Assembly (NCBI GenBank): GCA_964658305.1
Contig: OZ210885.1
Span: 992,001-1,056,000, forward strand
Direction of reading: 5' to 3'
Length of the DNA stretch: 64,000 nt
From: Leptogorgia sarmentosa
Taxonomy: Eukaryota
The translations under genes were made by a program, and so were the position numbers. The first letter of the stretch is position 1. Every line of letters begins with the position of its first letter. The notes under the pieces are model-generated. The model had not been told where the DNA came from and made no database searches. It saw only the letters and a program-made list of their open reading frames with translations. This document shows, in pieces, positions 5,201-54,327 of this stretch.

Positions 5201-8200
5201 TCACATTTTATTATTTTAAAGACGGCGCTGAGGTATTCTGGCATTCTGTGTTAAATAAACTGATTTACACATGAATCGCATGAGCTTAAATAAACATGTT
5301 AAACACATTTCGAGTGTTGTCCATAAATGTCATATAAACGCAGCCATCTTGCTATATTTAGCAGCAAAACAAACATTCAAGGCGCCAAATATATTTTACA
5401 TTCTCAAGAACGATTTTTTTTTCCGTTGCATTCAGGTTCTGAAAGATTAGGTTTAAAATTTCCACCTGACAGTTGAATTCGACAATGGGATCTTCATCAT
5501 TTAGTTGTGTCGAGGGAGATGCAAAAATCCTGAAATTTGTCCGGCTTAAATCGTCGTAAAACACAGGCATCGCATAATTTCATAACTTGCTTGATGCCTG
5601 GTCGATAATTTTACTTAGGGGCAGCTGTTCCATTGGTCCAAAGTTATATCAAATAGGGGGGGGGGATCCGATCAATTTGCAACTAAATATTTCATTACGA
5701 AAAGCGGCAAGAATTTGTTCTTGTTAGCAGCTGCAACAGGATACACGAGGGACTTTACTAGCCATTACCAGTACCACAAATGAGTAAAATTACGTTTGAT
5801 GTTCGTGCTATATATAGCAAGAAGAAATGAAATGTTTTTCATATACTTTTCCAAACATGTGATTGGAAATTGAGCATGGGAGAAAACTATTGATGGACAT
5901 GAATGCCAAGCTCCTTAGGGGTGTAGCTTGCGGCTTTGTGGGAGATGTTTTTTACATCATTTAGCACTCCCTGTTGACCAGCATGACCAGGAAGATAGCG
6001 TGCAAGTGTTGTTACTCTGAGCACGACAGTACAGCGAAATAGTTTATCACATGTAGGGTGCAATTACACTCAATATAAAGCATCAACACCCAATATAAGC
6101 AGTTAAGAACAAAATTATATGCACTGGCCATGGGCTTATACATAGGTCTTGCTGATCAATGTAGACCTTCAAAGATGCTGGAAGCGTGCCAGGATTATGT
6201 CGAAAGCTCGTGAATAAAAATCTATTTTTGACCAGAGAACGCATTATTATTTTTACAATAATTATATGCCTGTTCTCTAAATTCGAACGTTCTTCTTCGG
6301 GCTGAATAATCGTGGCTCATTCAGAGTTTATATTAACATCCATACAATTCAGTGTTAAGTTGATAACTTTTAAATAAGTTCTTAAATGGTCTCCTGAACT
6401 TCTTTACATTTAACCATCTTCCTTCCACTTTAAGTAGTGGACAAACTTGAATGGCTGTGGAAAGCGCCTTAATCTCAAACAGAATGAATGATCGATAAAA
6501 TATTAAAAGCAGAGTTTATGAAGCAGTACAAGCACTTCAATGAAATGAAATTCAGATATTTGTATTCATGCAGATAAATAATGGACAACATTGTTTTTGT
6601 TTTAGTTTTGCAGTGTCGTTGTAACGACGTAATAAATTTGAATCTTCAAACTGGGGTTGTCTCTGGTTCCAGTCCTTATGTAACCCTCCTCTCTGGTCCT
6701 TCCTCTGGGAGAGATAGCACAACGTGCGACAGTCAAGCGTTAGTGCGGATAGACTTTCGTGGCACGGACAATCCAGTGCGTTTCACGTTTCAGTACGGGG
6801 AAGATCCAATTGGCTGGACATTTGTGATCTCAGATTGTCCCAATGATTATGGTTTTGGCGGGAATTTTAATTATTCCAGCAACTGCGCATCCACCCAAAT
6901 GATCAACGGCCAATTACGTGTTTACAGTAGTCAACTTCCTGGTTATATTAAAGAAACTATTGATGGCAACAATCTTATGAAGGTAGTTCACTCGACTATA
7001 TAAAGGTCGGTTTCCACGATAATAAGCATGGATGGGATACGACAGAAACAAAATTGAACCCCGAATAGGCTTTCAGTGCCAATTTTCTGTTTCAGTTTGA
7101 ACCTGTCGGATCCTACGATAAAGAGTTGAAGTAGCTATTTATTCACCAGCGGAGTGGATAATTTGATAGTAGAAAAGAGTCCAGTCCTATCCGATCCGAT
7201 GCTTATTTCCCCGAGCGGAAATTGGCCATGAGGTCCAAATTCAATGAACCCTTTGTCCTATCCGAAACCTGAAATTAAGATTTTAAAAGATCAAATCAAT
7301 CTAAGAAAACATTTTCTTAAAGCTGAAAACGAGGATGAGAGTGCACGAGAGTTGTCAGACACGCACCTTGACGGGCGGTGGCTTAATAATGCTTTACAAA
7401 CACCATCATGTTCATCTATAAACATAGTTCGAATTAATCTATATGAAATGCAAAAGGCATCTTGAAATGTTCCCATTGACAATTCGTGACTGCCAACTCT
7501 CACCATCCTCGTTTGACCCGTGCTCAGTTGATGTAAATGAGAATTCCATTCACTCACTCCGTATTTCATCTGTAGTTTTCATTTTGTTTAGGTGGTGGAC
7601 AGAATGGTGAAGAATGGTGCTAGTCTTGACGTCAAAGTTGGAGATGGTTTCTTATCTTTGAACAACACACACAGGATCCGTAATTCCTATCTCTATGCAT
7701 TAGACGGACAATGGACAACTTATGGTCCTGTGGAAAAATATTTGTACGTCGCGTTCAACCGTGTTCCTTATACCAACTTCAGATCTGGAAGTGGTCTTTG
7801 CAGTGTGCGGATACGGATGGAACGAAGTGCAGGTAAGAAAGTGACGATGTGTACCTATGTATAACCCGAACAGTAGTGCTTTATCAGATATGAAGGTTGG
7901 GGCGACAGTCGAGAGTTTTAGATCTGCCGTGTGTTTTAAATCACTAAAAATGTCCTATCTTGTGTGTTTATTGGTGAAGAAATTTTTTTAAAATTCCCTA
8001 AATTTTTTAAATTAAATAATTTTCGATTTTCGTCTTCAAAAAGACGAACGAAGTCTAAGCCGAGAAAGCCGAAGTCTATAAGCCGTTATTTTCACGAAAT
8101 GTGTGAAGAACATCGATGATAATAAGGACTGTTTATGTTAAATATAATATCCTGGTGACGTGAATGAGGAAACAATGTGAACATTGTTTGTCTTTGGTTC

Positions 8201-11200
8201 TCATTGTCATCATGTCAATTAGAAGTGGATATTATGAGAAACATTTAATAGCATTAGAGCCGGCCTTTTTAAAACTCTTTTCCTGTTTTTAAATGAACGA
8301 TGATAACAGCATTAAATCATTCAGCTAAGAGTATTTTCAACACCTGATTTCGAATATTCAGCAGCTAATGTTTTGAATCGCAAACGCGTGTAAACCGAAT
8401 CAGTTGGCTTTGAGTCCCCTGCTGCAATGATTTGTAGGTTATGCACTCGAGACGTCCGCCAAAACCCAGCCAAATTAGATTAATCCAATTGTGGGATGGT
8501 TCAGTGGCAGCATGAAATTGCTTTGTTCAATATCAATTTAAATGCAATGATTGCTGAAACCACAATTAATAGTTGAATCATGCTCACTAAAACCAGGCTA
8601 AAACCGGCTAAAACCCACGTTGATAAAAATCAAATCACTTCCTAACTCCTGGAATAGTTTTGATGACAGACTTGATTTCTAATCGGGGATTAGTAATGTC
8701 GGTACTTCACATTATTATCATCAAAGGGGTTTATCCCTTCCGCCATTCTAATAAGAACCGAATTTGGAATTACAGGAAAGGCGATTTTAAGCTAGCTTCA
8801 TGCCACACATTGGCCACTCAAACGATGGTCTGCATGTATGAAAAAGGTTTAGGAAACCTGTAAAACCATGAAAAAGGAAATGTTCTTTCGCTTTGTTCGT
8901 CTCCGATACAAACACGCAATGCCACGCACCACTAAAGTGATTCCGTCAGTGATTCCACGCACTGTAGCAACAACAGAAAATGTTTTGGAAATCTCCATGA
9001 GATTATTTCTCAACTGATAATAAAATACTATCATGTTGGGTGTGTAGTCAGTGCATGCTGTTTAAATATTACAGAAACACTTTACTTCATTTTTACGGCA
9101 CTGACAGATAACTCAATGTATAACACGTATCTTCACTACTGTGCATACTGTTTTCATGTTATGCCTTTTAAACATGTCTGTGCAATAATCGAGAACAGCT
9201 GAGAACATCTTAAGCTTGTATACATGTCTTTTTTCTTGCCCTTCAAATGATGAACAATACCACCAAATATGGTAATATTTCGATCTATCACGACATTAAT
9301 CTTGTATGTTGTATAGGCATGCAGTCTTAGTAACATCGCAAGGTCACGACTTATTGAAAAAATGGACATTTGCCACACGGACGTGGTTGTTGTGCTAAAG
9401 AGCATCTTTAATAAATACTACGTGTTGCAAAATCGTTAAAACATTTTCAAATGTACACTACAAGCCAGCACACTATCAATTTTTCTTCCTATTCTTATGT
9501 GTCCTGATTTATCTGCTATTTTACTACAATCATTATCATAAAATCTGGACTATAAACATTTGAACGTGAATATTTTATATCAATGTGCACAGTTTTATTA
9601 ATGAGTTTAACAGGAGAATGAAAATCAGACCATTGTCTTTAAATTTCTTCGTTGTTTTTTTCATGATCATGTAGCAGAGGAACTATTTTTATTTTGCACA
9701 GCAGGAAAAACGTGGGTGTAAAAATGCATTTGAGACACTCCAAGTACTTTTCACAGGAATCTAATAACATAAATGGACTCCAGACTGTTCGAGTGTTAAT
9801 CACAGTTAATGCCACTTTTTTATTCATTCCTTTTTCGTCATCACCGCCCCTCTCCCTTCAATTATGACACCGGAGATACTTTCCTAATCTCAACTCTCAA
9901 CAGCATTCCAAGAGGTTGCAGAACCATTTTATCTTCTAGAAAACCTACTTTTTGTCTGTCTCTTATAGTATGTTGTGTGTCTATTAGTAAAAATGGAAGT
10001 TTAATAATGAGTTATTGGATATTTTCCTTAATTTAATTTTCTGCCAAGCGCTAGAATTAATTATTTCAATAGGCATTGAAAACACACTTACAGCATCTCT
10101 TTTCTGCATTGCATATTCCATCCATAATTGTTTCAAAGTACAGCAAAAGTTCCTCTCACTACCATCGATACAAGAAAAACGCTAATTTCAGAATTATTGC
10201 AAAATGTCGGTACTTACTGTATCATTTACTTACACTCGCCGTCGCCACATTTTAAAGTGTTCATGTGAATTTTTGATAGTTGATGCTTGCACTGAAAGAA
10301 ATAAGCCATGTGGCAGCAATGCTGTATGTGTCAAAGGAAAGAGAGATTTGCACGTTTGTGCATGTCAAGATGGGTATAACAAAATTGGAGGAAATTGCCA
10401 AGGTAAGACGGCACAAACTGTTAATGGGTGTCATGCATAAATTGTAAAACAGCGCAAACGCTATCAAGTTTTATTCTAATTTAACATCCATTCCACCAAG
10501 TGTATCCTGCCAAATAAATTATAAAAAACAACCCCAGGGATTAGGGAGTTTCCTCATGGATTCATTTCACTTAGTATAAATTGTAATTACATTTATTGGC
10601 ATCTTCCTATAAGATTTTATTAAAAATTTTCCTAAATTTGATGCATACAGTGTATTTTTTATGCGTACAAATAATTTTTACGAGCGTAGTAAATACTGTA
10701 GGATGAGTTTGTCTTTGACTTGTCAGCAACAGTCATGATTATTCGTGATGCTTTGTTTCCCCAGATATTGACGAATGTTTGCAAGATAACGGTGGCTGTG
10801 CGCAGCTCTGCACTAACTTGCCAGGAAGTTATGAGTGCAGTTGCAATACTCGTGGCTACAGACTTCATGCGGATAAACATCAGTGCATTGGTACGTAAGA
10901 TACAAATCCTAATTTCCATCGTCCACAGTCAGCTACTTCATGATAAATGTTTTCCCCATTTCAAGTTATACTTTCTATATCCTTCTTAATCTTTTCTGTT
11001 TCATGAACGACTACTGTATCATATGGTTGTTACAGCCTGGTTCAAACTCGCATTTCATCGGCGATCTATTTCCGTTTCTTTGTTACAGATAAAGCATTTT
11101 TAAATGCATCAACGATGAAAATTGCCGATTCTTGCGTCTAGTGAGAACCAGGCTCATCTGCAATTACTATCGCTGTAATCGACCATGATGAAAAAGATAG

Positions 11201-13989
11201 CGGCATGTCGATCGTAAAAACAGTTTGCGAACTTAAATCGGCTTTCGTTTGATAATATTAAGCGTTCATATCCACCTCTGACCACTGTAACTCGAAAAAG
11301 ACGTCGACATATGATCGATTTCGCCATGCTCTTTGACGAACAAAAAGATGTAGCCAAACCTGGAGAAATTCATATAGCGCGTTAAATATCTTTCAACTGT
11401 TATCATGACTCATTAAAATTCGCAAAGAACTTTTTTTGAGGACGACATGTCGCCATTTTAAAAATTGGCGAATTTTTATCAGGCATTCCCAGTAAGAATC
11501 TCGACATCTCTCACTTCCACTCCGACACTATAACGACACATTCAAACTTCCCTTCACCAAAACTATGTGCAAGATTACATTCCTAATCCAATTTCTTCCG
11601 TTAGACGAAAATGACATTGATACAATCACAAGAAAAATTAGACTGAGGATTCAAGTGAAGCAGTGCAAGACCAATGCAAGAATTGTGTCAAACTTCAGAC
11701 GAGATCTTCGTCTACTGATCTCTAAAGATATCTGTAGTGCTCCCTGTGAAATTCACGCAGTCACCCTGAAGTGTCGGACAAGAAGAAAGATAAACATTCT
11801 GCACACAAATCTGGATATAAGAATGAACCCCAATTTGATTTTCTCGCGAGCTCAGTGTAATTCATCGTGCATTAAATGTGAAGCGGAGAGCAAATTACAG
11901 AAGACAGTCACAAATTTGAGGCGTTTGGTCAATTCAGATAAATTCGTGCTGTCTTTTGATGGTCAGAGATATGTCCTGGATAGAAAAGATGTTAAAGGTG
12001 TGAGAACAAAAAGCCGATGTAAAAAGGCACCAAGGAGAAACGGTAAAACTTTTTTTATTTCATGCACTGAAAGCTGTACTTATTTCTCAAAATACGTTAT
12101 ATTTTGTTTCTCAACCAGCGAAGAATAAAAGCATCGATCATGATTTTATATTTTGACAAGCAAAGTCACGAGTAACCGTTTCACATTTAACTGATAAAAG
12201 CCAAAAATACTAGTTCGAAAACGAGATTTGGAATATTCAGAAATTTTAATCGTGACAGGAATTCAAAAACTAATCATGTTGTATAATTATATGTTTTGCG
12301 CATTGTAATCCTGGCAAAATGAAACTGGAGGTTATATCGTATAATGAGTGATGTACAATCATTTTCGATTGTTGCATGCTTAGACAAACGGTTCCGTTGA
12401 TTTCGAGTTTTTAAACTTTGATCCCTCTGAACTCTTCTGTATTTTAATTTATGTTCAAAAGTGAACATAGCTAAGTCCATAACGCTCACCAGGGATGAAC
12501 GTAGAACTGCAATGTCAGTCTAAATGAGGCTTTTAGTAACCGACAAACTCGGCCATCATTCAAAAAGAAGATCTATATATGAGTAAGCTACATTCCTCAC
12601 TCTATCTTAATTTTTACTGACCTGATTGCAGGCTCATGTCGACGTGGTAGTTACTATGACGTAGTATCGAATCAATGTTTGAAGTGTCCACGTGGTACAT
12701 ATCAAAATCAAGATTCTGAGAAATTCTGCTATCGTTGCCCTGGCAATACGACAACGCTTGAAACAGGCGCAAAGAGTAAGGCAAAATGCATAGGTGAGCT
12801 TTTTACTAATATTGCATGAATTTGGACGGAGATCAAAGCAAACAAAAAATGTCAAAAAAATCATCTCTTTTTTGAATATGATTTCATTTCCATTTGTCAT
12901 GTAGATATTTTAGTTTTTCAAACATTTATTCATTCTTGGTAATACTGTCGCCTAGCTGTTCTTCCTAGTAGCGAGCAGCACAAAATGCATTTGAATTCTC
13001 TTTTTGTCTAGAAACCATTTGTGGTTGGTCAATGAAAAATGCGGAGTCTGGTTTCATCTACACTCCCAACTTTCCTGATCCTTATCCCCCCGGCATAACA
13101 TGTGAGTGGCAGATCGATACTCTTGAAAATCACACCGCTTTCTTCCTTATACCAAGGCTTTCGTTACCGCTGACAACGCCCTGTTCAGACTATTTGGTGA
13201 TACGAGAAAATTCTAGTCCTTATTCCGTTCATTCATATCTAACATGTGAAAGCAATCCTGACCCGATAGTCATCGTGGCGAGAACCAAGAAACTTTATAT
13301 CAAGTTTCACTCAAGCAGTTTACAAAATGCTAACGGATTCAAGATGCGTTTTGCTACGTATAAAGGTAAAATAATCCTTGAACGGAAACATTTATAATTA
13401 GGCTACATGCGAATCTAAAATTGCATTTTTATTCGACACAAACATGTTTTTTCTTCAAAGATGAAAATTGTACAACGTCGCTATTTTAAACAAGTTATTG
13501 GCGGGAAATTATGACCTGACCGATAATTTTCACTAGCATGAAGATATGGAAAATTTCTCATTGAGTAATTTTCGGTATCTACTATATAACTTCAAATTTC
13601 CATTGAAGATTTGGTAAAAGACCTGGTCGAAGACATAATCCAAGATGGGAACATGTATAATAAGAAGAGTCATAGGGAACTGTTGCAGGTAACATTTTTT
13701 CCTGATTTGCAAATATTTTTGGGTTCAAAGACCGTGAAAGTAATCCGGAAATTTTTGAATTTTTGCAGTAAAATCAATTAGCCAATTATTTACATTTGTT
13801 TTATCATGATGAGCTCTTTATCATTTTATCTCATAGAATGAAGACACCACTGCAGATCTTTTCGCCGTACTAGGAGATCCGCTCAGCTTTCCATCTTACT
13901 ACACAGATGAATATCTTTCAAAGTTACCGTCATCGTTTATCAAATTTATCAGCAACAAAGTATCCAAGTACTTTTTCAGCCGGAAATAG
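2223..13989 (+). CDS. SCUBE: SCUBE-like secreted protein (signal peptide, unassigned N-terminal domain, EGF, cbEGF, spacer, one Cys-rich GCC2/GCC3 repeat, CUB, SCUBE C-terminal helix), ~701 aa, 10 exons
   Basis: join(2223-2274,6606-6982,7592-7832,10280-10402,10765-10890,11605-12042,12632-12793,13012-13365,13609-13688,13837-13989). All introns are GT-AG, phases are consistent, total 2106 nt. cb[30 protein letters not shown]; ephrin-receptor-like CPRGTYQ...[20 protein letters not shown]...[17 protein letters not shown]. Tail [12 protein letters not shown]...LFAVL...[16 protein letters not shown] matches the vertebrate SCUBE tail (LIEDIVRDGRLY...FPRSFIRLLRSKVSRF). Exon 1 is the least certain. 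Confidence 0.88.
7004..7228. mobile_element. Intronic MITE, PIF/Harbinger-like (degenerate TIRs)
   Basis: GGTCGGTTTCCAC...GCGGAAATTGGCC termini with internal inverted segments (ATAAGCATGGATGGGATA / TATCCGATCCGATGCTTAT). Confidence 0.4.
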
Positions 13990-16050: not shown

Positions 16051-16206
16051 AGTATCACCCGTTTCAGTGCCTTCGACATGGAACCGATGTCCATCCATAA
16101 CAATATCTCCAGTAAACTTGTGTGGGGCTGGGTGTACCACTTTGGTAGGGTGGGGTTTCGGCTTGAAGAATGTTGAATCAGTAGGGGCATGTGCCGGTGG
16201 GGTGAT
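16051..16206 (-). pseudogene. Duplicated fragment of the sulfatase-like gene exon 8 (copy of 17896-18060)
   Basis: Reads [52 protein letters not shown], then VIV*. It has a 9-bp in-frame deletion relative to the gene. An in-frame stop lies about a dozen codons upstream, and no phase-matching acceptor was found. Confidence 0.85.
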
Positions 16207-17113: not shown

Positions 17114-20100
17114 CTACGATGCTCCTCCGGCATTAAGATTTTTTGCTCGCTGGAAATGTCTTGCGACTACCGCAATCATTGCAACTAGCGCCACCCCAAC
17201 GACCATTGCCGAAGCAATCACGACGATTACGACAGACGAAACGACAACAGCGTTATCTGAAGACTCCAGTTGAACTGGTTTCTCACAGTTTGTGTCATTC
17301 TGTTTCGTGATGTTACCACTGTTTACATTTTGATGTGACGTCACCGGTATATTCTTTGTTGGGCTATCAAATTCAGCAGCATCCTTTAACAATTTTCCGA
17401 CATTTTCTGACTTTTCAAGATTTCTTTCTGATCCCTTCTTTGATTTAGCCGGTTTATTTGCCTTTGGAGACTCGACAATGATATCGGTTACTTCACTATA
17501 ATCCGTCGAATCCACGGAAGCGACATTTTTGTCGACTGGTGTATCTTTCGGTTTTGAGACACTTGATTTTGGTGATGGAGTGGAGACACCTGGGTAGTTG
17601 GATGGATTATTATTCACTTCTAGAGAGTTGAAAAACATGAAGTTAGTATTTAGGGTATCGGCCAAAAGATGAAAAAAATCAGTAAACTGAAAGACTAATT
17701 AAATGTATAGTATACAATTAAAATTTATAATACTAATGCCATATTTTAAACGTTGAGATAGAAAATATGAAAATGAGTTTCATTTTCAAGTGCTACTTTC
17801 AAGTTTATTATTATTTATTAAGGATATAATGTCTTCCCCCTCCGCCAAATCTAAAGCAATTTCCTACCTGGGCCAAAATCTTTCATAAGCCAGTTAGTAT
17901 CACCCGTTTCAGTGCCTTCAACATGGAACCGATGTCCATCCATGACAATATCTCCAGTAAACTTGTGTGGTGCGGGGTGTACCACTTTGGTAGGGTGGGG
18001 TTTTGGCTTGAAGAATGTTGAAAGAGGTGAAGCAGGAGGGGCATGTGCCGGTGGGGTGATCTTCGGAGCTGGCGCTGGTTTCGAAGGGATTTTGGTTTCA
18101 GGTTTTTTCGGCTTCTTCAAAGTTGCCGATCCTGTATCGTGTTGATTGCTAGTTGCTTTTGTCTTCTCTTTATTTACATCGATGACATCGTAAATATTAT
18201 GGATAACGGGAATTTCTTTCGGTGCTTGACTTGCTGGTGGGTTGTCTGTCTCGTCAATGACGTCATACACTTGAGGGAGGTCAATTTTAATTTCATCCGA
18301 ATGTAATTTAGTTCCGAGGTTCGTTTCCCCTGTCGGAGTCTTTTTGTTATTTCTGCCACTGATTACTTCACCGAGAGACACTGGTTTGAATGGTTTGGAA
18401 GGCGGCTTGGTGGGGGACAGGTATTCTGATGTGGGCGAGATGACAGGTTCTTTACCGCTTCCAGCATCCTCCATTAGTACGTTCTGGATATCGATAACTG
18501 GAGGTTCAGTGGGTTTTACGCGCATAAAGCTGCTTTCGGTTGTAGGTTGTGTAAACGGAGCTGCAGTGGTCGGAGCTAACGGATTTATCTGTGGTTCAAT
18601 TAAGTTTCCAATGCCTTCTATTACAACGCTAGGTTCGACTTTCTGTACACTTGGAGAGGAGATGTTGTATGTCTGGTGTTTAGTTGTAGGCGGTGGTGGT
18701 GCCTTGTGGATGGGCGGTGGTACTGCTGTGTGATTTGCAAGAAGGTGCTTGTGGTTTTTGTGATGTTTGGTGATGTTTGCAAATTTCTTCGCTTTCTCTT
18801 TAAAGATTTTTTCATTATCAAGAGGAGTATATGGGGCACTACTACCTCCGTGATCGTTCATTTTAAGGTCAGCCATTGGATCCGGGTACACAAACTGCGA
18901 ATTCGTCGGTGGCATGTGAGGGTCATCACGCCAAAATGTCCAGCTACCGTCATGCATGTCGGGACGGGAAGAATTGTCCGAGTCTGGGTAGATTGGAGCT
19001 TTTGAAGCATTTGCAAAATGATAGAAGCGTTCTAACATAACTTTCATCGTATTTGGCATTATTTCAGCGATGTTATGGTATTCGCACGGATCCCATTTGA
19101 TGTTAAACAGACAAGGTCGTTCACGTGGTTTACATACTGGTGCATGAGTGAATAACAAAGGATGTGGTTCGCGAATGGTACAGTCCACTGTAGTACCTTT
19201 GGGGAATATAAAAAAATGTTTGTTATACACAATAATAACCGTTCACAATTTTAAGGATGGCACAATCAGCTCTGTTGACAAAAAAATTTCACGAAGTTTG
19301 AACGAATCTGGTAACACAACCTCTGCATAAAATATTCACTGAACTGCCAGTTCCTTGCTATTCAAGATTTACACACATTTAAAATTCAATTAAAACGTTG
19401 TACTCTACATATATTAATCTACTTTTTCACGAAGTACTCTTTCTTATTAGTTTTACCTTCAATGAGTTGCCTTCTTTTCCGTTTACTCATGCCTTTGGGT
19501 ATTGGAACTCCGGGTCTGGGATACCAATCCCCATAATAATTATCATCCTGGTTCACAATGAGTTTGTAGTCACCAACACGAAGAGCTCCGGACATTTCCG
19601 AGAAGGTGTCCACACCATGCAAAACTTCAAAACGAGGCGATGGTTCGGAATTTGAAATGGTTTCCCAAATGTTATAGCCGTCAATCTTTCCCAGAGTCTG
19701 AATGTTACCACCACCTGCAGCGTACAACGTTGGCAGCCAGTCTGTGGCATGAACAAGTTCCTCACAAATACGACCTAAAGCGGAGTACACTTGTACATTA
19801 GCACAAATCAGATTAAAAATAGCATTGTTTTATTGCAACTGCAATAGCTAATTCAAAATACACATTCTTTGACTAAATATTTTGATGAACGAGCTTTCGA
19901 CTACCTAACTGTAGCCTTTGACGGGTTAAAGCGGAGCAAGTTATTTACGATCTGACCGTCATATTTGTTTGCATAATAATTGCAGACACAGTTATTACGT
20001 AATTGCCGATGTGCAGTTACATGCTAACAATAAGGTGGCCAAATAAATTCACTTTATTTTTTTCACTGAATGAGACCTCTCGATATAATGTGTTAACACA

Positions 20101-22854
20101 CAGAGGAGTACAAATTTCTCTAAGCTGTTCTGGTTGAGATTGTTAAGTTTAGTTTATTAGTGCCATACTAACCTTTCTTTTTCAGCAGAGGACTGTAAAC
20201 AAAACCCACACCACGTACACCCCCTTCCCAAAAAGTGTTCTTGCCCCCTCTTAGTGGATAATTGGAACCAGCACTGTTGTCATATCCACCGGCAGCTCCG
20301 CCATTATCCGTTGTAAAGATAATGATTGTATTCTTCATCATTCCTTTCGCAGTCAAGGCATCTGTTAGTTCTTTTAGAGATTCATCTAATGTTGCTACCA
20401 TTCCTAAAACCAGAAAAAAATATCGTTCAAGTGACAAGAACTGAACCACAAACAAATTAGCATGGACCTCAGTAATGATTTCACCGTTTGCATACATTTA
20501 TGATAATGATATAGTTTTTAATACAAAAGATTCAGTCAAGAACTAATAATGCTATATGTTATGATACAAATTGCATTAAGAAATAAAAACCTGCAAATTT
20601 CCTTCTTGATAAATCTTTTATTCCAGCAAACTGTTTTACATATTTCTCTGGGACTTGTAAAGGATCATCTCCATTGCCAACATGTACTGCTTGATGAGCC
20701 AGATACAAAAACAATGGCTTTTTGTTGTCGTATTTATTGATGATGGTTGTCGCTTCTTTCGTGAAAAGTTCCGTACTATATTTGCCGCTTTCATTGTACA
20801 CCAACTGAAGCAAGAGAAAAACCCATTGGAATATCTTTGAGCAAAGCTACCGTTGAATGGTAGTAATAGAACTGTATATTCTTTCACCGATAAATGGATG
20901 TTCAAAAAAAACGGAATTGTCCCGTTCATCTGTGTTGCATTACGTCTTAAGCGCTTAATTTTGCTGGGGCAGGCATAAATAAATATAGCTATACTATTTA
21001 AAAAACGAGCAATCTAATCAGGGATGTTTTATGTGGGTTTAAAAAATAACAGAAAGACAGAAATACCAGACATGACCTACATTTTTTTCTTAATTAAAAA
21101 AAACTTTTTGTCCTTTTTGAGGGAAAACGAAATTCATCAAAACAAAATTCTTCTGAACAAAATATACTGCAAGTTTCTGAAAACACCCAAAACTTGCGAT
21201 AATTACGAACACTGAATTAGCAATAATAAATCAATTAGAAGCCAATTGTATTTTGTTATAATTATTTAGATATTTGTTATATTTATCTAGGATACAGAGT
21301 ATAATCGAATCAAAAAGTACCTGTAAATCTCTCCTCAGATCTAATCCATACCCATTATCATAGGAAACATGGGAATAATAATCTTCTGTATCCGTCCAAA
21401 AGCCAAAATATGAATCAAAACCGCGATATGTTGGCGTGTATTCTTTCGCGAAAAATCCCAAATGCCACTAAAGTTCACAAGGATAACGAACTTGTTAATA
21501 ACATAGTTAAGAGTATTGTTTTTTCTTTTGGGCCATGATCTGGCTGATGTGACCGTGAGGAATTAGGCGTGAAACATGCAACGCAATAGAAACCATTTTT
21601 TTTTATGAATTTATTTCCCTTTATGAAATCTGTTAAATGTTTAGTGAAGAAAAATGACAAATCTAGCTACCAGAAATTTGAAAACAAAATAAGTGAATAT
21701 AATTCAGTAGTTTGGATCGGAAAATGGATTTTTATTCGACAAGTAATTTCATAATAATTGTATACCTTTCCAACACCATGGGAGCTGTATCCTAATTCTC
21801 GTAACCGATTTGGTAACAACGATTCAGCCAGTGGTAAACCACTCGGCTGTTGATTATGAAAATCATCGTGTTGTAAACCTGAAAAGAAAAGATTGCAAAT
21901 CAGGAGTAATTAACTATTACGTTGAAATTGTTGAAGTCATGAATCAAAAGTGATTGTTGGAACAACTCTTAATAGATATACAATAACAAAACGTGCTAAA
22001 CATATAATATCGATTATCCATGCATACGAATCGAAAGCTTGAGAAAGTATCACTTGCCATGCAAACGAGTAATGAACTTATTATTAAGATATTTATATAT
22101 ATTATCTTATCGTATCAGCTGGTTACGAAAATATGTAGTTATATAAATGTGATGTGACGATGTCGTTGACTTACCAAGATGGCTGGCATATTTTCCAGTC
22201 ATAAAAGCTGCTCTACTCGGCGTAGACAAAGGTGAAACGTAATAATTATTGAGGACAACTCCATCCTTCGCAAGGCGGTCCAACGTTGGTGTTGGAATCT
22301 GATTTGAGCCATGAAAACTAACATCATCCCATCCCTAGATAAAGAAAAAGAAAATGGAAGATTTCGGAAAAACTAAACATGCATAGCATGGTTTGTCGAA
22401 TTAACACAGGAAATATTAATGAAGCAAGGATTTCTACAAGTCTTGCAAGATTGAGAGACTTCGGTATTGTTTGCTATTCTAAAAACTTGGATTCCGTTAT
22501 AGGCGGCCAGGTCGTGACTATCTCTCAGTTTGCTCCCAAGAGTTTGAGTTCGTTATTTATCTTCTGTTCCAACTTTGACCGGTAATATTAAAAATTTTTC
22601 TCATATGCATTTTGTCCCCACCTCCTTCCCCCGACAAATTAGTTTTTTGCTAGAACAGTCAAGTTGACAGCCAATAAAGGAGTTTAGCCCATTGATCTGC
22701 ATCTTGTTCCTTCCCCTCTATACTTACGAATAAATATTCTTACCAGGTCATCGGCAACGACCATAATAATATGAGGTTTTGTATATGCAGGTAGAACAGG
22801 AGACACTAAAACGAGACTTATAAAGCAGACAACCAAAGCCATCTTGGCTACCAT
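17114..22854 (-). CDS. Arylsulfatase B/I/J-family protein with Ser in place of the catalytic Cys, a long low-complexity stalk and a C-terminal transmembrane helix, ~1042 aa, 9 coding exons
   Basis: complement(join(17114-17619,17868-19196,19457-19774,20173-20403,20591-20804,21321-21467,21766-21878,22175-22334,22744-22854)). GT-AG introns, consistent phases, 3129 nt. Signal peptide [23 protein letters not shown]. Motifs [121 protein letters not shown]. Confidence 0.9.
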
Positions 22855-25561
22855 ATCGCCTGTGAAAGGAAGAAAACAACAGTTATGATAATACCCGTGC
22901 ACACAGGGCGAAATCGACTAATTGAAAGGCTAACAAATTCGGTCGTATATACTCATGCAGAATGAATATGAATTGTTTTAATCTGCCCTCCTTGTTTGCT
23001 TCATTTTGCCATTAACCATTGCCTCCAAATGGACAGTATTTTCATTCTGGAGATTACTTTCAGATAATGATTTGGAAGGACAGGAAGTACGGGAAATAGA
23101 AGATGAAGCGTACAAAATACATCAAACGTTGACCAGTTTAATTTTTGACTATCTTATATGGAGTGGAAAAGAAATGCATGAATTAAGCGGACAGTTTTAA
23201 AGGATTATGGATGCCCAGTACGACGGAGGTACATCAAGACGCGGTATTGTATATTTGCAGGAGTACATTGTGATATACAGGCTTTATAATACATGCAGGA
23301 CAAGTAACACTTAGTTGTAACACTTTTCTAGTTGTTCCCCCTGCATTGCAACGTGTCCGCTAAAACAATGTCTAATTCTTATCGAAAATTAACGTAATTT
23401 TGGCAAGAAGTTTATATGTTTACTTCTTTTACTTAAAATGTACGATTAAAACGATAAAAACAACAATTTTTCCCGCCTTGGAGATTTGTAAGCATCGTTT
23501 TGGCAAAATTCCTTTGTTGCCAGTATTAATAATTAACGACTTCGAGTCTTCGTTATTTACATTAAAATGTACACTATACAGTTACTACAATTGTTGGATG
23601 TAGAAAATTCCAAACAGAAATTCAGATTAATAAAATGTATAGAATCAAGTGAAATAGTTGTTGAAATGTATCCGTGCAAAATTATTTTTAAGTTCTTTTA
23701 CAGGTGCCTTAACTTTGATTTATATATATACGAAACTATTAGAGTCAAAACGTACAAGTTTGGCACGGTTTTTTATTGTCTCGGTATATATTTAAACTGT
23801 AGGATAAAAGCTTTTAAAATCACACTAAAAATTGCAAGCAAAGTTGCGACCACTGTATTATAATAATGATAATCATAGGCTTTTACAGTCAAGACAATGT
23901 AATTCAATAAATATGCAAATTGTAAGCGAAATGATATAATTGCATAGACAGTTACCTCGGAATTTATTTGTCATCATTGCTTAATCGCTGTGGAATTCAA
24001 GTTTTCATATTTTTCTGATGAGTAATGGTTTAGTCATCTGTCACCGAGTCTTCACGCTCCTGTGGTCTCGAGGTTTATGAAGCTATATCGTATGCAAAGA
24101 TCAACGTTGTGCAATGGAGTCAGTGAATTGGCAGGTGACCGGCTTGTGCGCTTGTCACATGAGCAGGTAGCGTTTAACGCTGCTGGATTTTACACAAAAT
24201 ATACCAACTCAACCGTAACTTGCTCAAAGTTTCAAAATAAACACAAAGAATTAAAAAAAATATGACAAATTTTTACTTTTTAACCAAATTCAATGGAATT
24301 TTAAGCCAGTGTTGACTATTAAAGCTACAGAATAATCCTGAGTATTTTTCAAAATTTATGTCAGCAAAATACATGTCCCGTGTGTTACCGGCTATAAACT
24401 AGATTTCGGCGTAAATTAGTTCTTCACTTGAACTTATATACATATTGACTTATTTATAGCGTAAATTTGGAAAGTAGATAGTTTTGTTGTTGAAACTGTA
24501 GGTATGTAAAATTATTCACTTATTTTTCTATATGCATGGGCTTCAAACGAACAAGGAACAGTTTAAGTATATCCGAACACAAATTCTAATGCAATAAGCT
24601 GTTATTTTGTGTGAAACATGCTTCGAAGATCGACGACTTAATACAAACTCAAGCCAAAATTGATTGTAGGAAATTTATCAATGGTAAAGGTATGCATGTA
24701 AAAGGTAATATCAGACGTTCATCCACAGCAGGTCACAATTTTAAGAATATTTTTATTTTCATCTGGGGCAGCCATCAAATTACAGGACAAGTTCAAAACA
24801 TGTACAATTTGGCGGGAAAATATGTCAGTTCCTTTGCGAACTTTTGTGATGACTTTTCTTCAAATCACTCCCGAAATAATTTCATTTCTAAATGAAATAC
24901 GCTGTTAATATTTCTTGCTTGAGTGGTTTGACCAGCACAAAGACAAATGTTTCTTGGTAAAAGGAAGTCATCAAGCGTGGAATTGTGTCAATACTTCTGT
25001 GGCTTGTTACCCGTCGTCGAACCAGCGCTCTCCACTAGAGCGTGGAGTATCTGCGCTAAAACCGAAGCAAACCAAGCATAGCAAAAAATTGAATCAGTGA
25101 ACAAAGAGAATATGGCATCATCTAAAAAACTACTCACTTGGTCCTTATTCAATTCTTTCGACACTTAAACGAATATAAACCTCTTATAACCGCATATGAA
25201 AGTGATAGCCTTACAGCCCTTACTACACGTACACATGTGTGAAACTACTTCGTGCAGGTTGCGGATAATAGCAGCAAAACGCAATAAAGATTATATTCAC
25301 GATAATAACTAAACGATAAAACAGATTCAACGTACCGTTTCGAACGAGCATATTTCGTTAACTGTCGTTAACGTCGCGGGCGACAAAGGCTGGTTCCCTC
25401 GAAACCGTAAAATCTGAGGCGGGGGGTGGGGGTGGGGGGGGGGGGATGTCAAATTATGCAATTCACGTTGAATTTCTTTCCTCAGTAATGCAACCTAATA
25501 GTTTTAGGTTGAACTACATCGGGCAGAAAAATACCAATCATTGATATGGGAACGCGTGTTC

Positions 25562-39469: not shown

Positions 39470-42076
39470 CAGTGCTTCCATTTTGAAGGAAATTTCCTTT
39501 TGAAAGGATTTTTTGGCAAAATGAAGGAAATAAAAAGGAAATAATTTTTGAAGGAAATTTGAAGGAAATTCTAGAAAAATAAAGGAAAGTTGAAGGAAAA
39601 TACAAAAATATCTTAAAATTAGTTAAATTTTGGAAATAAAGTCACAGAATATATATCATACAGAGATGTAACTGTGATAAAGTGTAGAATATGTATCAAT
39701 CCGATTCGCGGAAGCAGAGTAACCAGTAACCACTAACCAGACAGGCAGCCGCATAAGTCATAACCGCATTCTTTCTACAGTATAATATTAATACTCTTAG
39801 CTTCAGGTTGCTTTCATATTCGAATTTCATATATATGCTAAAAGAGATTTGACATTCTAATCTCCGAACTTAAAGCTCTTGTACAGTCAAAAATGTTTTA
39901 AAACTTTCCGTTCCTTCATATTATTTTCTATTAACCATTTTCCAAAATTAACTGATAGACAGTCACAGTTTTGATTGCAAAATAGGTTTTTCTAAATCAT
40001 TCAAATTTCAAAGCAAAATAGACAATTCGTAAATTAAAAAAGGAACGTTCAAAAGACAAACGCGAAGAACTTAGAGCCATTATCCATTCTGCCTACGAAA
40101 TGTGGCATTTCTGAAATTTTTCTTACGATGACATGTCATATGTAGCTACAAAACCTTGATCGATGTATTAGTTCCTAATTTCTTCATATTTGTCACTAAA
40201 CATTGGTTAAAATTGGCTGTAAGTAGTGTATAATTGCTGCCGAGCGTAGCGAGGCAGCACACTATTCTTGACACGCGGTGGTTTCCCCAGAGTCTACTCG
40301 ACCCAGTCTTTCGCGCGAGTTATGTATTGCCGAGATCGAGATCTTGTGTCTGTCTGTCTGTCTGTCCCATTGAACTATATATAACTGGAAGGCTACCTTC
40401 ATATAAACGGGAACGAAAAAAATGAAGCCAAAATTTTGCGTGGAATTACCCCCAGACACGCGTGTCTGGGGGTAATTTCACGCGAGTTCAGCTGCGTGAC
40501 ATTCTCGCGCGGTAGAAAGGAGCGAACAAGTCAACAACATGTTTTCAAAAGAGAACGTAGGAATTTGCGATGCGATAGAGAAGTGATTTTGCTGTTTTTT
40601 TACTGTTTCAAAGCCATTTCTTGTGCTATGAATACAGAAAAATTAAATTTTATGGCGATCAAATGAATTTCTGTAAGGGAAACTCGCCGAAAACAAACGA
40701 TTGTGTCTCGATTAAAACGGATCTGAAATGCTTGACATTGATTCGAAAGCTGGCTACAAATGGAATCACAACAGATTTTAGTCTATGACTATGTCATGGT
40801 CGCCTGTGGGCGAACAATTTTTGAAAAATGTCAAGAATAAACGAAAAATGACAGCCCGGCATAGCAAAAGTGGCAAAACCTCAAAAGGCCACTTATCGCC
40901 GTTCGGGTTTTTATTATGAAAACCAAACATTCACCAAATTTATGTTAATATAAATGATTCACATCCTCCGAAAACTATTTTTTGCGAATTTTGTACAAGT
41001 TTTTTCAACAAAAAACAGAAATGTTTTTGTTTTGGCCGTGTCTACATTACGTGGAAAGACTGGGGCCGATTTGGCTTCAAGTTTTCGGCCGGAAGTAGCC
41101 TTCCAGTTTTATTTAGTTCAATGGTCTGTCCATAAAGATGTTTGTCGTATCCGGGGGCATAATTAAGCTTCAGGGACGTTTGTTAAAAGAGGGGAGCGGT
41201 CAGAATAATTAAGCTTCAAGGACGTAAACAAGATATTGTATTGCGCACGCGGCACGCATCTCCATGTGCGTCAAGAATCGAAAGGTTTTTACAAAAGCGT
41301 TTCATACGGATGCAAGATTGTGCTAATGTTTTATGCGTTGTGGTTGGCCCAGGTTGGGTAATTTGGTATTTATGGCGATCACACATCAATGATGCAAGCA
41401 ATGTTCAGAATGCTAGCCCTAATAGACTGTTAGGGTTAGTGTTTACTATGCTATTACTAATAGTATAGTAAACACTAACCCTAACAGTAAACCTTCACCC
41501 TAACTGGCGTGCTGTTGCTTTTCAAAGAACGGGACATAAACACAATATGCGCACTGAATCGCATTTTTAATTATTATGTTGAGCTTGCGATTAAATAACG
41601 AGATATAAACGTGGTAAACTTAATCGGTAATAATTTTCACTTCGTATGATCGTACACGAAGAACGAAGGCTGTCACACGCTGCTTTCTGAATACTCGGGT
41701 ATATCACATTTCACTTCGTGTCATCGTATTACGAAAAAATGTATCTTGCCCAGGCTTTTTAAAAACTCGGATACATTACATTACGTGATCATTTTGACTT
41801 CGTATCATCGTATCATGATAACAAGTCACTGTTTCAAAAGTGGACAGGTATTCTATAACCCAGCCGGGATTTTAAAGTTTGAGCGCAACGGCAGCACATT
41901 TCCTTGCGATAGTAACTCCTAGTTTATAGTAAATTACACACTTTCTTCGATGAGAGTTTGTTGAGCACTGATTTCGAGAGGGAAATTTGGAGGAATTTTT
42001 GATATTTTTTGAAGGAAATTCCAGTCAAAAAAAGGAAAAAATAAGGAAATTACCAAGTTCGGAAATGGAAGCACTG
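39470..42076. mobile_element. Non-autonomous hAT-superfamily DNA transposon (2607 bp including the nested insert)
   Basis: Perfect 14-bp TIRs CAGTGCTTCCATTT / AAATGGAAGCACTG. 8-bp TSD TTCAGGAC (39462-39469, 42077-42084). The empty site GACATTCAGGACACTC is seen in the sister repeat units. Clustered subterminal GAAGGAAA motifs. No transposase ORF. Confidence 0.93.
40232..41923 (+). mobile_element. Helentron-associated/DINE-1-like non-autonomous rolling-circle element nested in the hAT
   Basis: 5' hairpin TGCTGCC-GAGCGTAGCGA-GGCAGCA (40235-40259), (GTCT)n at 40347-40366, 3' subterminal inverted repeat CGGCAGCA (41889-41896), end CTAGT. Internal palindromes at 40439-40482 and 41429-41484. Confidence 0.72.
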
Positions 42077-43440
42077 TTCAGGACACTCAGAGAGCAGGGA
42101 GATGCAGATCGGCCCCTAGACCATATGTGATAAGCACCTTGTCCTTGAGCGAAAGGCAATGTCGTAGCATTAGAACCAATATACTATATTACGCCTTCGT
42201 ATTTGTATACGTTACACTCTTCAGGCGTGGTTGTTGTGGGACTCGTCTTGTGAAAATTCATTGCGCATGCGCTTACGTCAAAATTTGTTTTCTTCGTTTT
42301 TTCTTCGTTTTTTCAACATCCCAGACATGGTGAAAGTGTTAAAAGCAAGAATAGTCAAGGAAGAAACGAAAAAAAATTTTTTTTAGTGACAAAACCCGAA
42401 AATAATTTCGTCAAGCACATTGCGCATGCGCGTACATCAAAATTTGTTTTCTTCGTTTTTTCAACATTCCAGACATTATGAAAGGGTTAAGAAGCAAGAG
42501 AATAGTCCAGGAAGAAACGAAAAAAATTTTTTGGGTGAAAAAAACCCGAAAAGAATTCGTCAAGGGCCCTACCATCCGCACAGAGTCTGGTAGATCGCCA
42601 GTAGGGACTTACTAAGGCAACCGGAACGCATCGGGGATGCCCGCTATCACTTGACCGGTACAAATGTATGACTTTGACATTCAGGACACTCAGAGAACAG
42701 GGAGATGCAGATCGGCCCCTAGACCATATGTGATAAGCACCTTGTCCTTTAGCGAAGGGCAATGCCGTAGCATTAGAACCAATATACTATATTACGCCTT
42801 CGTATTTGTATACGTTACACTCTTCAGGCGTGGTTGTTGTGGGACTCGTCTTGTGAAAATTCATTGCGCATGCGCTTACCTCAAAATTTGTTTTCTTCGT
42901 TTTTTCTTCGTTTTTTCCATATCGCAGAGATGGTGAAAGTGTTAAAAGCAAGAATAGTCAAGGAAGAAACGAAAAAAAAATTTTTTTAGTGACAAAACCC
43001 GAAAATAATTTCGTTAAGCACATTGCGCATGCGCGTACATCAAAATTTGTTTTCTTCGTTTTTTCAACATTCCAGACATTATGAAAGGGTTAAGAACAAG
43101 GAATAGTCCAGCAAGAAACGAAAAAAAATTTTTTGGGTGAAAAAAACCCGAAAAGAATTCGTCAAGGGCCCTACCATCCGCACAGAGTCTGGTAGATCGC
43201 CAGTAGGGACTTACTAAGGCAACCGGAACGCATCGGGGATGCCCGCTATCTCTTGACGGGTACAAATGTGTGACTTTGACATTCAGGACACTCAGAGAGC
43301 AGGGAGATGCAGATCGGCCCCTAGACCATATGTGATAAGCACCTTGTCCTTTAGCGAAATGCAATGTCGTAGCATTAGAACCAATATACTATGTTCCAGA
43401 TTCGTATCTATATTGCTAACACTCTTGAGGCATTTAAATT

Positions 43441-44807: not shown

Positions 44808-46680
44808 TTAACGAAGACCAATGGCGGTGCCAAATGCATCTGTCCAACGATCACTAGAGGTGTATGTTCCACAACCTCCGAAATGCATCTCGGTAAGAAA
44901 CAGGAAGTTGTTAGGAAGCTGACGATGACCATACGAGGGTACGCCAGTTTTTCGCCAGTTTACTGCTACACCACGTCTCTCAAAAACAAGATTTCCACTG
45001 AAGTAGGAACTGATCGTTCCCTCCTGATGATTGGGGAACAGAGCGAAGTAGGAGTTTGGATTAGCATCACAGTTTCTGAAGGTCACATATTTTCCATTTG
45101 ATCTATAAAGGCAAATTTTATACAACCAATCTGCAGTTAATGTTTGCCTAGTTTTATATTTTACCAGTAATTAATTCTATAGACTTTTACAGGGAAAATC
45201 CTGGGAACCAAGGGTTTCCAACAGTCCAAGTATGGAAATTTATCAACCCCTTTTTCGTATGTGTGGATGAGGCAAAAATTGAAAATTTCAGCCTTGTTTT
45301 CATTCCCATATTTTCCGATCATCTCGCACCTCTGGATCATAGATAACACAATTGCCCTCTTTTTCTTTGCTTTTATGAGAAACTTGATTATATTGAATTG
45401 GGGTAAGAAAATATCAGGAGGCTACAACCCCCAGCCCCCTCCACCCACTTCGTGGCTGCGTTCATGAAAACTGCAGCTATAATGCAAATTGCAATTATCA
45501 ACGACCATAAAAGCGTCTTAAAACGTAGAGTGCGATAATACGAATACCGTTGCACTCTTCGAAAATGGAACTTGCTTTTCAATATCACGTGACCAAAATG
45601 GACCAATCAAACGACCTGAATGTAACGAGGTATTATAATTTTGATATGCGATACAGAATTATTTATATAAATAATTCTGTAACGCATATCAAAAAGTCCT
45701 CACAAATTAACATCTCTCAAGTGTAGAACTGCGTTGTAAGTTGCACAAAAAAGAGCATCGTGCGACAGGAGAAGAAATAGATAACGAGTGGCGTGCCATC
45801 ATGCTGTTATAATGCAGGGGGGGGGGGGAGATGTTGGGAGAATACGAGAGAATCGCGCCATTGAGAATGGGGAAGTATGGGGGAGAAATACCTGAATCCT
45901 TGAGTATTTCGGGCTTTCGCCTTGCTTGCAGGTATTATGCCAAGAAAGATGTAATCACCCAGTCCAGCATTCTTAGGACCTGTATATCCTGCATAATTAT
46001 GCATTAATACACCAAGTGGTTGTCTGGAGTAGTATGGAAGTTGAGTGATGAGAGTAAATGGTTGAAGGCCATTCTGCTTTTGAAAACGAAGAAGAACTTG
46101 GGATTTTTGAGTGAAAATTTGATTAATCAGGTTGGGAAGCTTTCCTCGTTTAACAGCCTCGCGTGGAATGAAGGTAAATCCACCACCTGCCTTCGCCATC
46201 TCACAGTACACTGTGATCACAGTATTGCCCACCAAAATGTCATAGAGACCACTCAATGCATGGGGAGCACTCTTTTTGATGTCAAGACATGACTTCTTGT
46301 ACGTTGTTGAATCAATTATTTTCTGAAACAAGTTGAAATCAAGAAAAAATTAGCTGCAACAACCAGTAATGTAGCCAACCTCGTACCCAGGAATGTAGCT
46401 ACACGATGAGATTAAAATAAAGTATGGCTAATCAGCTGGTAACAAATGATCACTGCAACCAATGTGAAATCATAATGCATGTGTGTGCGTTGTTTACTTT
46501 CGAACAAAACTCTTAGGAATTCAGGAAGGCTGATATGGACTCAATTTATTGTTATGCCATAAAACATAAGAATGACGTCAAATCATTCACCACATAGTAA
46601 ATATATATCAGTTGTTTAATTCCTACCATAAACACTCCGGGCACATTGAGTAGAAGACAAAACAAGGCCAGACGCGTCAT
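44808..46680 (-). CDS. Secreted protein with a fibrinogen-C/FReD-like N-terminal motif and an uncharacterised C-terminal domain, paralog A, 259 aa
   Basis: complement(join(44808-45102,45892-46322,46627-46680)), 780 nt, GT-AG. Signal peptide MTRLALFCLLLNVPGVFM. SCLDIKK...SGLYDI...TVYCEM...GGGFT is the typical fibrinogen-C N-terminal motif. C-terminal NCDANPNSYFALFPN...EMHFGGCG. Confidence 0.85.
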
Positions 46681-54295: not shown

Positions 54296-54327
54296 AGAGA
54301 GATATAGTGCAAAGTTGATAAGACGAA

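Follow-up and report, generated by a model that had tools for sequence, protein, structure and literature searches.

The window, a stretch of 64,000 nucleotides from the octocoral Leptogorgia sarmentosa, carries on its minus strand a gene for a sulfatase-like protein. We modelled nine exons with canonical donors and acceptors, which give an open frame of 1042 aa, and the Sulfatase domain of Pfam (PF00884) was detected on three of them. The product consists of a signal peptide, an ARSB-like domain (about residues 26-522), a stalk rich in Pro, Ser, Thr and Lys, a C-terminal helix (residues 998-1027) and a tail of 15 aa. The positions are collected in Table 1.

The earlier note on this DNA had described a frame intact over nine exons. 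In the assembled contigs of runs X7 and X8, all eight introns are spliced out at the modelled positions; such joints are absent from X4 and X6, which are of DNA type. We took X7 to X10 to be RNA because their contigs skip introns, so "transcript" denotes an inferred class here. The nine exons hold, but they are not the complete set: a further 32-nt exon is spliced on at the 5' side, and the gene thus has at least 10 exons. An alternative exon-8 donor near 17904 was dropped, since the spliced contigs use the donor at 17868. The conserved islands in the exon-8 stalk are YDVID, which occurs twice, and an HKF hairpin (17967-17911, minus strand).

Table 1. Features of the sulfatase-like gene, in positions of the window.
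Feature	Position	Strand	Basis
Upstream exon; its in-frame ATG would put MMTNKFRGD ahead of the modelled start	23956..23987	-	X7/X8 loose ends at 22861 match 23958-23987; AG/GT ends and frame
Exon 1: modelled start at 22854, hydrophobic signal peptide (aa 1 to ~23), metal ligands D35 and D36	22744..22859	-	Signal peptide: hydropathy only
Exon 2: signature S74-T-P-S-R78	22175..22334	-	Pfam Sulfatase, E 9e-10; 7/7 runs
Ser74 codon TCT at the formylglycine position	22224..22226	-	Sequence; aligned to human ARSB 1fsu
Exon 3: clade-specific H98 and N99 in the loop after GLQH; GKWH begins	21766..21878	-	Exon model, alignment
Exon 4: W129 and H130 (Q in hexacorals; A, G or S in hydrozoans)	21321..21467	-	Exon model, alignment
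Exon 5: AVH218	20591..20804	-	Exon model
Exon 6: D281, N282 and K303	20173..20403	-	Exon model
Exon 7: sulfatase domain, ending in the basic loop RKRR 424-427 (octocorals only)	19457..19774	-	Exon model, alignment
Exon 8: domain end (clade-specific residues 442-484) and most of the P/S/T/K-rich stalk with conserved islands	17868..19196	-	Donor 17868 from spliced contigs
miR-2022 target site in exon-8 coding sequence, part of K-T-K-A-T-S-N (aa 776-782)	18146..18163	-	18/18 match
Exon 9: stalk end, membrane helix, 15-aa tail, stop	17114..17619	-	Exon model, contigs
30-residue membrane helix, aa 998-1027 (16 Val/Ile and 1 Leu)	17162..17251	-	Sequence

On re-reading the minus strand, we found the codons GTT TCA CCT TTG TCT ACG CCG AGT AGA, with S-T-P-S-R at 22226-22212 in place of C-x-P-x-R, as first reported. 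The Cys of C-x-P-x-R, which FGE requires, is therefore missing (Ser74). The other motifs named by the earlier note are all present in the exon model: ADD (34-36), the motif Arg (R78), GKWH (127-130), AVH (216-218), TDN (280-282) and RGGK (300-303). They were aligned to human ARSB (1fsu) by way of P0004 of Paramuricea clavata, a protein of 94% identity. Apart from the nucleophile, all 10 active-site residues (metal ligands and basic or His residues) are kept.

TCT is one base away from TGT, and the earlier note had allowed for a single-base error or polymorphism. Exon 2 was covered in all seven runs compared (X4-X10; seven samples from two studies), and the contigs show no listed difference from TCT at 22224-22226, including the middle base 22225; the comparison used assembled contigs, which drop rare alleles. 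Over exon 2, X6, X8, X9 and X10 show no other letter and X7 shows one, which is synonymous. X4 and X5 show three other letters each, within a longer piece, and among the differences listed none falls on the codon. P0004 also reads S-T-P-S-R, with 98% identity over exon 2 and 94% over 301 aa, which puts the window in an octocoral close to Paramuricea; P0003 has this motif as well. Ser at position 74 is real and common to more than one species. Given the identical codon in seven runs, the identical residue in P. clavata, the spliced transcripts and the silence of all nine listed domain variants, we regard a sequence error, a private allele or a decaying pseudogene as having practically no probability.

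We also examined the variants within the gene. The listing gave 40 of 114 variant rows; after 11 intronic rows were set aside, the other 29 were tallied, 26 of them in coding exons. Silent and replacing changes number 9 and 0 in the domain, 3 and 0 in the helix and tail, and 8 and 6 in the stalk. The domain is 64% identical between octocoral and hexacoral, 92% among scleractinians and 55% to Hydra; stalk identity to Oculina is 28%. The best reading of these sequence comparisons is an old pseudoenzyme that appears to be under purifying selection rather than in decay. The membrane helix differs at only 2 of 30 positions between octocoral and hexacoral, and its composition (15-17 Val/Ile and 0-2 Leu) recurs in all five proteins counted. 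A dimer prediction for the membrane segment, made with two copies of P0382 250-305 and no alignment, scored 0.02, which counts neither for nor against pairing of the helix.

The 120 relatives of exon 2 mostly carry Cys, and every long protein with the same C-terminal helix lacks it. The C-terminal block was found in 187 of 579 stored proteins, of which 43 include the motif, and none of these has Cys; the 43 are redundant cluster members, many of them near-copies, from about five lineages. Their motifs are D-S-P-S-R (25), D-T-P-S-R (5), D-S-P-T-R (1), S-L-A-T-K (7), S-F-A-T-K (4) and S-T-P-S-R (1). This tally agrees with the earlier proposal of a pseudoenzyme with a stalk and a membrane anchor. 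Loss of Cys co-occurs with the helix in every helix-bearing protein that includes the motif. Ser, in contrast, is not fixed, with Asp in hexacorals and S-[FL]-A-T-K in hydrozoans. The conserved trait of the orthogroup, as far as the alignments speak, is the absence of Cys and not Ser itself. Other non-Cys animal ARSB-like proteins were also met among the relatives.

The remaining site residues vary by lineage. The hexacorals (Oculina, Porites, Pocillopora, Stylophora, Montipora, Acropora, Orbicella and Actinia) have Asp at the nucleophile position and Gln for H130, and Actinia has lost H218 as well. Hydra, Hydractinia and one further relative keep Ser, with P76 replaced by Ala, R78 by Lys, H130 by Ala, Gly or Ser, and N282 by Ala or Ser; D281 is variable. 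D35, D36, K128 and K303 are present throughout the 11 clade rows, and the metal ligands D35, D36, D281 and N282 throughout the eight anthozoan rows. Twenty-one invariant residues are specific to the clade: 12 fall within the C-terminal portion of the domain, at 442-484, and two (H98 and N99) are in the loop that follows GLQH. The concentration at 442-484, away from the signature, would fit protein binding and glycan binding equally.

To place the anchored proteins, we selected 35 domains, removed 13 active-site columns from their alignment and built a tree. The 11 anchored proteins form one clade (support 100/99), which nests among cnidarian Cys-type paralogues and in which the hydrozoans branch first, then the octocoral, then Actinia with the scleractinians. 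When the bryozoan protein P0447 was included, it fell inside the clade and support dropped to 88/99. This protein has Gly, no stalk, 40% identity and a branch of 1.6; we took its position as long-branch attraction and left it out of the tree with 100/99 support. A larger FastTree phylogeny, of 309 domains, agreed with this placement of the anchored proteins. By parsimony on the tree, Ser is probably ancestral in the clade and Asp derived in hexacorals. No myxozoan, scyphozoan or cubozoan orthologue appeared by name in the relatives search, which is weak evidence given the many nameless matches.

The fold comparison was made on the Porites orthologue P0015 and not on the joined protein of the window. 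In its AlphaFold model the domain is predicted with confidence, the stalk is disordered apart from one small strand island, and the C-terminus forms a long helix. The best fold match is human ARSB 1fsu (TM 0.92 of target, 40% identity), which is also the best solved relative by sequence (E 3e-92). In the ESM Atlas, P0014 fell in ordinary sulfatase clusters only.

We then compared the window with a probe of pri-miR-2022. An 18-nt stretch of it, which we take to be nt 2-19 of the mature miR-2022, matches exon 8 exactly, and this is the sole match in the window at up to three mismatches. By chance, 0.11 matches would be expected at up to three mismatches (11 of 100 shuffles had one) and 5e-6 for an exact match. 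The Hydractinia probe over that species' own miR-2022 site is identical in its first 13 letters. At the protein level, TKATS was rejected as the shared footprint, being confined to the window protein; the common core is A-T-S-[NK]. This core occurs in 143 of 144 block-bearing proteins of at least 500 aa; the other long proteins have it in 4 of 275 cases, and shuffled stalks in 3-13%. The exception is the octocoral fragment P0375, with A-A-S-K instead.

NVE16448, HyS0052.52 and t19037aep are the published cnidocyte "arylsulfatase", a miR-2022 target according to the available text of PMC10548089, PMC12945647 and bioRxiv 10.64898/2026.05.09.724056. They belong to the same orthogroup as the window gene by probe sequences, an accession link, the tree, a common membrane helix and a miR-2022 footprint that keeps to a single frame. 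The Nve16448 probe, read by eye over 400 of its 781 letters, encodes YYVSPM-D-T-P-S-R-ASFMTGKY and VGKW-Q-LG, the D-type of the clade. All five Hys0052.52 probes encode peptides found in P0264, which is LOC130612262, the gene that PMC12945647 equates with HyS0052.52. The Acropora homologue is named as XP_015767398.1 in bioRxiv 10.64898/2026.05.09.724056; it corresponds to P0551, which has the same helix and footprint, and a mispredicted N-terminus that omits the motif. The window gene thus shares its clade with HyS0052.52 and with the hexacoral proteins of the D-type, and its 18-nt miR-2022 site matches perfectly. The site residues differ among them: Ser with an otherwise full site in the window octocoral, Asp in Nematostella and S-L-A-T-K in Hydractinia.

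The published data on these orthologues, as given in the available parts of the papers, concern stinging cells. Cnidocyte expression is reported for Nematostella, Hydra and Hydractinia (PMC10548089). NVE16448 was enriched in Ncol3-positive cells in three of four sorted pairs, and its change on miR-2022 knockdown was not significant (padj 0.29; PMC10548089). LOC130612262 is described as specific to developing nematocyte clusters. Three HyS0052.52 peptides were recovered from Hydractinia nematocyst preparations, the protein belongs to a cluster shared with the Hydra nematocyst and the Rhopilema and Sanderia tentacle proteomes, and it is called possibly an "important and specific enzyme" (PMC12945647). 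In the accessible text of the three papers, the gene is treated as a putative or important enzyme, and the lost nucleophile, the stalk and the anchor are unmentioned; the words "inactive" and "transmembrane" are absent from the main text of PMC10548089. The parts available of PMC12960093, PMC12549020, PMC5566210, PMC11067881 and PMC3975064 hold nothing further on the gene. The gene and its miR-2022 site are therefore already known, as are Ser-type animal sulfatases (in beetles). An orthogroup-wide loss of the nucleophile together with a membrane anchor was not found in print, in a search that covered few subscription papers and to which supplements might add.

Ser74, the intact spliced gene, the Cys-less cnidarian clade, the identity with the published gene and the miR-2022 site stand together as observations, of which we are nearly certain. 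From these we propose, with confidence somewhat above even, that the gene encodes a pan-cnidarian, non-catalytic, membrane-anchored binder. It would fasten material of the capsule to the vesicle membrane while the nematocyst develops, and the non-sulfated chondroitin sheath is the most plausible candidate for that material. By the known chemistry, in which FGE converts Cys only, the protein would very probably gain no formylglycine and turn over no sulfate ester. Judging from the orthologues, it is also quite probably made in developing cnidocytes in this octocoral, and dosed there by miR-2022 cleavage. A type I topology would likely place the domain in the secretory lumen, that is, inside the capsule vesicle. 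The least secure step, put forward tentatively, is that the old GalNAc-recognising cleft may bind chondroitin without sulfate and that the invariant helix may couple this cleft to the membrane. We suggested a tether for non-sulfated chondroitin because the substrate of ARSB is GalNAc-4-sulfate and the variation across the clade affects the side of the pocket that deals with sulfate and metal. The nematocyst thread wall has been described, in the text available to us, as a non-sulfated chondroitin sheath joined to minicollagens by nematogalectin (bioRxiv 10.1101/2021.09.09.459669). As a separate observation against the proposed tether, the window protein keeps 10 other site residues, of which a purely structural role needs none; in octocorals they would be compatible with binding of sulfate or with some residual chemistry.

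The main rival, which we hold to be clearly less probable, also places a pseudoenzyme in the capsule vesicle, but as a protein scaffold: the partners of its domain would be cargo or proteins of the capsule (minicollagens, nematogalectins), and it would bind no glycan. The 12 of 21 clade-specific invariant residues at 442-484 speak for it, as does the contrast between conserved stalk islands and helix and a catalytic pocket that has decayed in its own way in every lineage. It accounts less well for the clade-wide invariance of H98 and N99 in the loop after GLQH and of D35, D36, K128 and K303, and for a nearest solved relative that acts on GalNAc-4-sulfate. The earlier note had instead envisaged a surface receptor that holds sulfated glycans in its dead site. 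Engineered Cys-to-Ser ARSA and ARSB trap sulfate. Such a receptor would resemble these laboratory traps, and Cys-to-Ser sulfatase mutants have been crystallised with a sulfated sugar (PDB 6psm title), other PDB titles showing mutants of this kind in soaking experiments and substrate complexes; the octocoral protein keeps its whole site except the nucleophile, and a 30-residue helix with a tail free of sorting motifs would permit delivery to the surface. However, the sulfate and metal residues are what decays across the clade: the hexacoral Asp would occupy the sulfate position and His130 is Gln there, and hydrozoans have lost R78, H130 and N282. Further, the gene marks developing nematocytes, the protein occurs in nematocyst preparations and the nematocyst glycan is described as non-sulfated. 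We therefore consider the receptor improbable.

Enzymatic readings fare worse. The Ser or Asp could serve as a direct nucleophile or base on the metal site, as in other members of the alkaline-phosphatase superfamily, and the four metal ligands kept in all anthozoan rows and the strong conservation of the domain would suit this. However, there are three residue sets in three lineages, hydrozoans lack N282 and their D281 is variable; a single conserved chemistry would not tolerate such differences and is unlikely, so this reading is given little weight. Least probable among them, and in our view very unlikely, is an active Ser-type sulfatase served by an animal route from Ser to formylglycine, which the earlier note had already ranked low. 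The intact S-x-P-x-R and site in two octocorals, and the existence of a Ser-type clade in beetles, are in its favour. Yet one maturation route for the whole clade is implausible, because Asp cannot become formylglycine and the hydrozoan motif lacks Pro and Arg, with His lost as well; this variation among orthologues argues against both a new Ser-activation route and a sulfate-reading pocket. The Ser-type beetle protein PcSulf2 was without arylsulfatase activity, though poorly expressed (PMC6823443, available in part). In the available part of PMC3920027, Cys is given as the residue on which FGE acts, and bacterial anSME is the only system described as maturing Ser. No anSME/AtsB maturase was found among the 15 window ORFs scanned.

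A fuller version of the tether hypothesis is speculative and, we think, rather doubtful. A chondroitin sulfatase paralogue would have been disarmed and bolted to the membrane at the origin of cnidarians; its dead domain would read the non-sulfated sheath, its Val/Ile-rich helix would couple this coat to the bilayer, and the resulting matrix-membrane link would shape the tubule, with miR-2022 setting the dose. Apart from this version, recent papers propose the gene as the enzyme to which stinging capsules owe their non-sulfated chondroitin; to judge by its site residues, its product is probably unable to desulfate in any of the cnidarians examined. This gives a published hypothesis a new direction and overturns an annotation that is in active use and likely wrong. 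It also offers a candidate conserved membrane protein for coupling the glycan sheath to the vesicle membrane in nematocyst tubule formation, a natural series of sulfatase pseudoenzymes (Ser, Asp and broken motif), and a microRNA site whose reading frame stays constant within a fast-evolving stalk in anthozoans and medusozoans.

Among known systems, human ARSB is a soluble lysosomal enzyme with a Cys-derived formylglycine. All site residues of this N-acetylgalactosamine-4-sulfatase but the nucleophile align with the window protein; the cnidarian clade differs from it in having Ser or Asp, a stalk of 450-1200 residues and a membrane helix. Insect membrane-anchored arylsulfatases of the Sulf4/GSS type likewise combine a signal peptide, an ARSB-like domain and a C-terminal membrane helix, but they keep Cys, are active, lack the long stalk and branch apart from the cnidarian clade. 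Bacterial Ser-type sulfatases, matured by anSME/AtsB, share the S-x-P-x-R signature. Unlike them, the window gene has eight spliced spliceosomal introns and nests among animal Cys-type paralogues, and Ser is not fixed across its orthologues; the introns and the cnidarian paralogues as nearest relatives rule out bacterial descent. Ser-type sulfatases are not confined to bacteria, as the earlier note had assumed: a beetle Sulf2 clade with Ser was reported in 2019, along with a lepidopteran SulfB clade with Gly (PMC6823443, in the part available). Both are animal ARSB-like proteins that have lost Cys, as in the window gene, and no activity on nitrocatechol sulfate was seen with PcSulf2. In our tree, whose sampling did not extend to Sulf2 itself, the moth protein P0113 (Gly-type) is well separated from the cnidarian clade, so the loss of Cys in moths is independent. 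Beetle Sulf2 has no membrane helix (PMC6823443, Table 1), unlike the window protein.

Loss of the nucleophile Cys from the sulfatase signature extends beyond the anchored clade, the cnidarian orthologues of the window gene with a C-terminal membrane helix. A second cnidarian paralogue (P0058 from Xenia, P0068 and P0293) lacks the nucleophile and reads G-T-P-T-R or G-T-Q-[ST]-R, with the remaining site intact. This paralogue is soluble, and its position in the tree is close to the anchored clade, but outside it. Ser, Asp or Gly occupies the nucleophile position in further ARSB-like proteins (P0130, P0314, P0322, P0340, P0342, P0344, P0358, P0383, P0398, P0414, P0427 and the bryozoan P0447), some of which carry tandem domains within 1100-2700 aa. 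Cys loss seems to be recurrent among ARSB-like proteins. Two public gene models of window-gene orthologues were found to be faulty: that of Acropora digitifera (P0551) is without the motif exons, and that of Paramuricea clavata (P0004) consists of unrelated sequence from about aa 355 on. Because of these faults, the loss of the nucleophile may have been concealed.

The other features located in the window are listed in the table. Among the neighbours, the CUB-domain gene, the Macro-domain gene, the flavin monooxygenase and the tRNA showed no connection to the sulfatase finding. Of the two near-identical open frames, the one scanned gave no Pfam match. Several frames are open in the 18-bp array, and no Rfam family reached its gathering score in the ~603-bp repeat. 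We also observed, 900 bp beyond the stop of the window gene, a copy of about 150 bp from the 3'-terminal part of exon 8, where the conserved HKF hairpin of the stalk is encoded. With few differences and unrelated flanks, it is probably a partial duplicate.

Features in and around the sulfatase gene (window positions)
Feature	Position	Strand	Remark
CUB-domain gene exons	6578-13394	+	
Exon 8 partial copy	16051-16206	-	
Tail after membrane helix	17161-17117	-	window gene
Macro-domain gene	27931-28188	+	
tRNA	29719-29790	+	
Flavin monooxygenase	30670-30963	-	
Repeat, period ~603 bp	38711-43436		two groups separated by 3.2 kb, similarity 94-100%
Open frame	44808-46349	-	near-identical to next
Open frame	58857-60116	+	opposite orientation
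18-bp tandem array	51886-54300		134 copies, 99% matches

Two features set the octocoral proteins apart. An RKRR basic loop encoded in exon 7 (aa 424-427, about 19480-19470), a possible furin site, is present in the window protein and the octocoral fragment P0375, and is absent from the hexacoral and hydrozoan orthologues. After the membrane helix, the tail has R-H-F in octocorals; the counterpart in hexacorals and medusozoans is R-H-C or R-Y-C, which could be a lipidation site.
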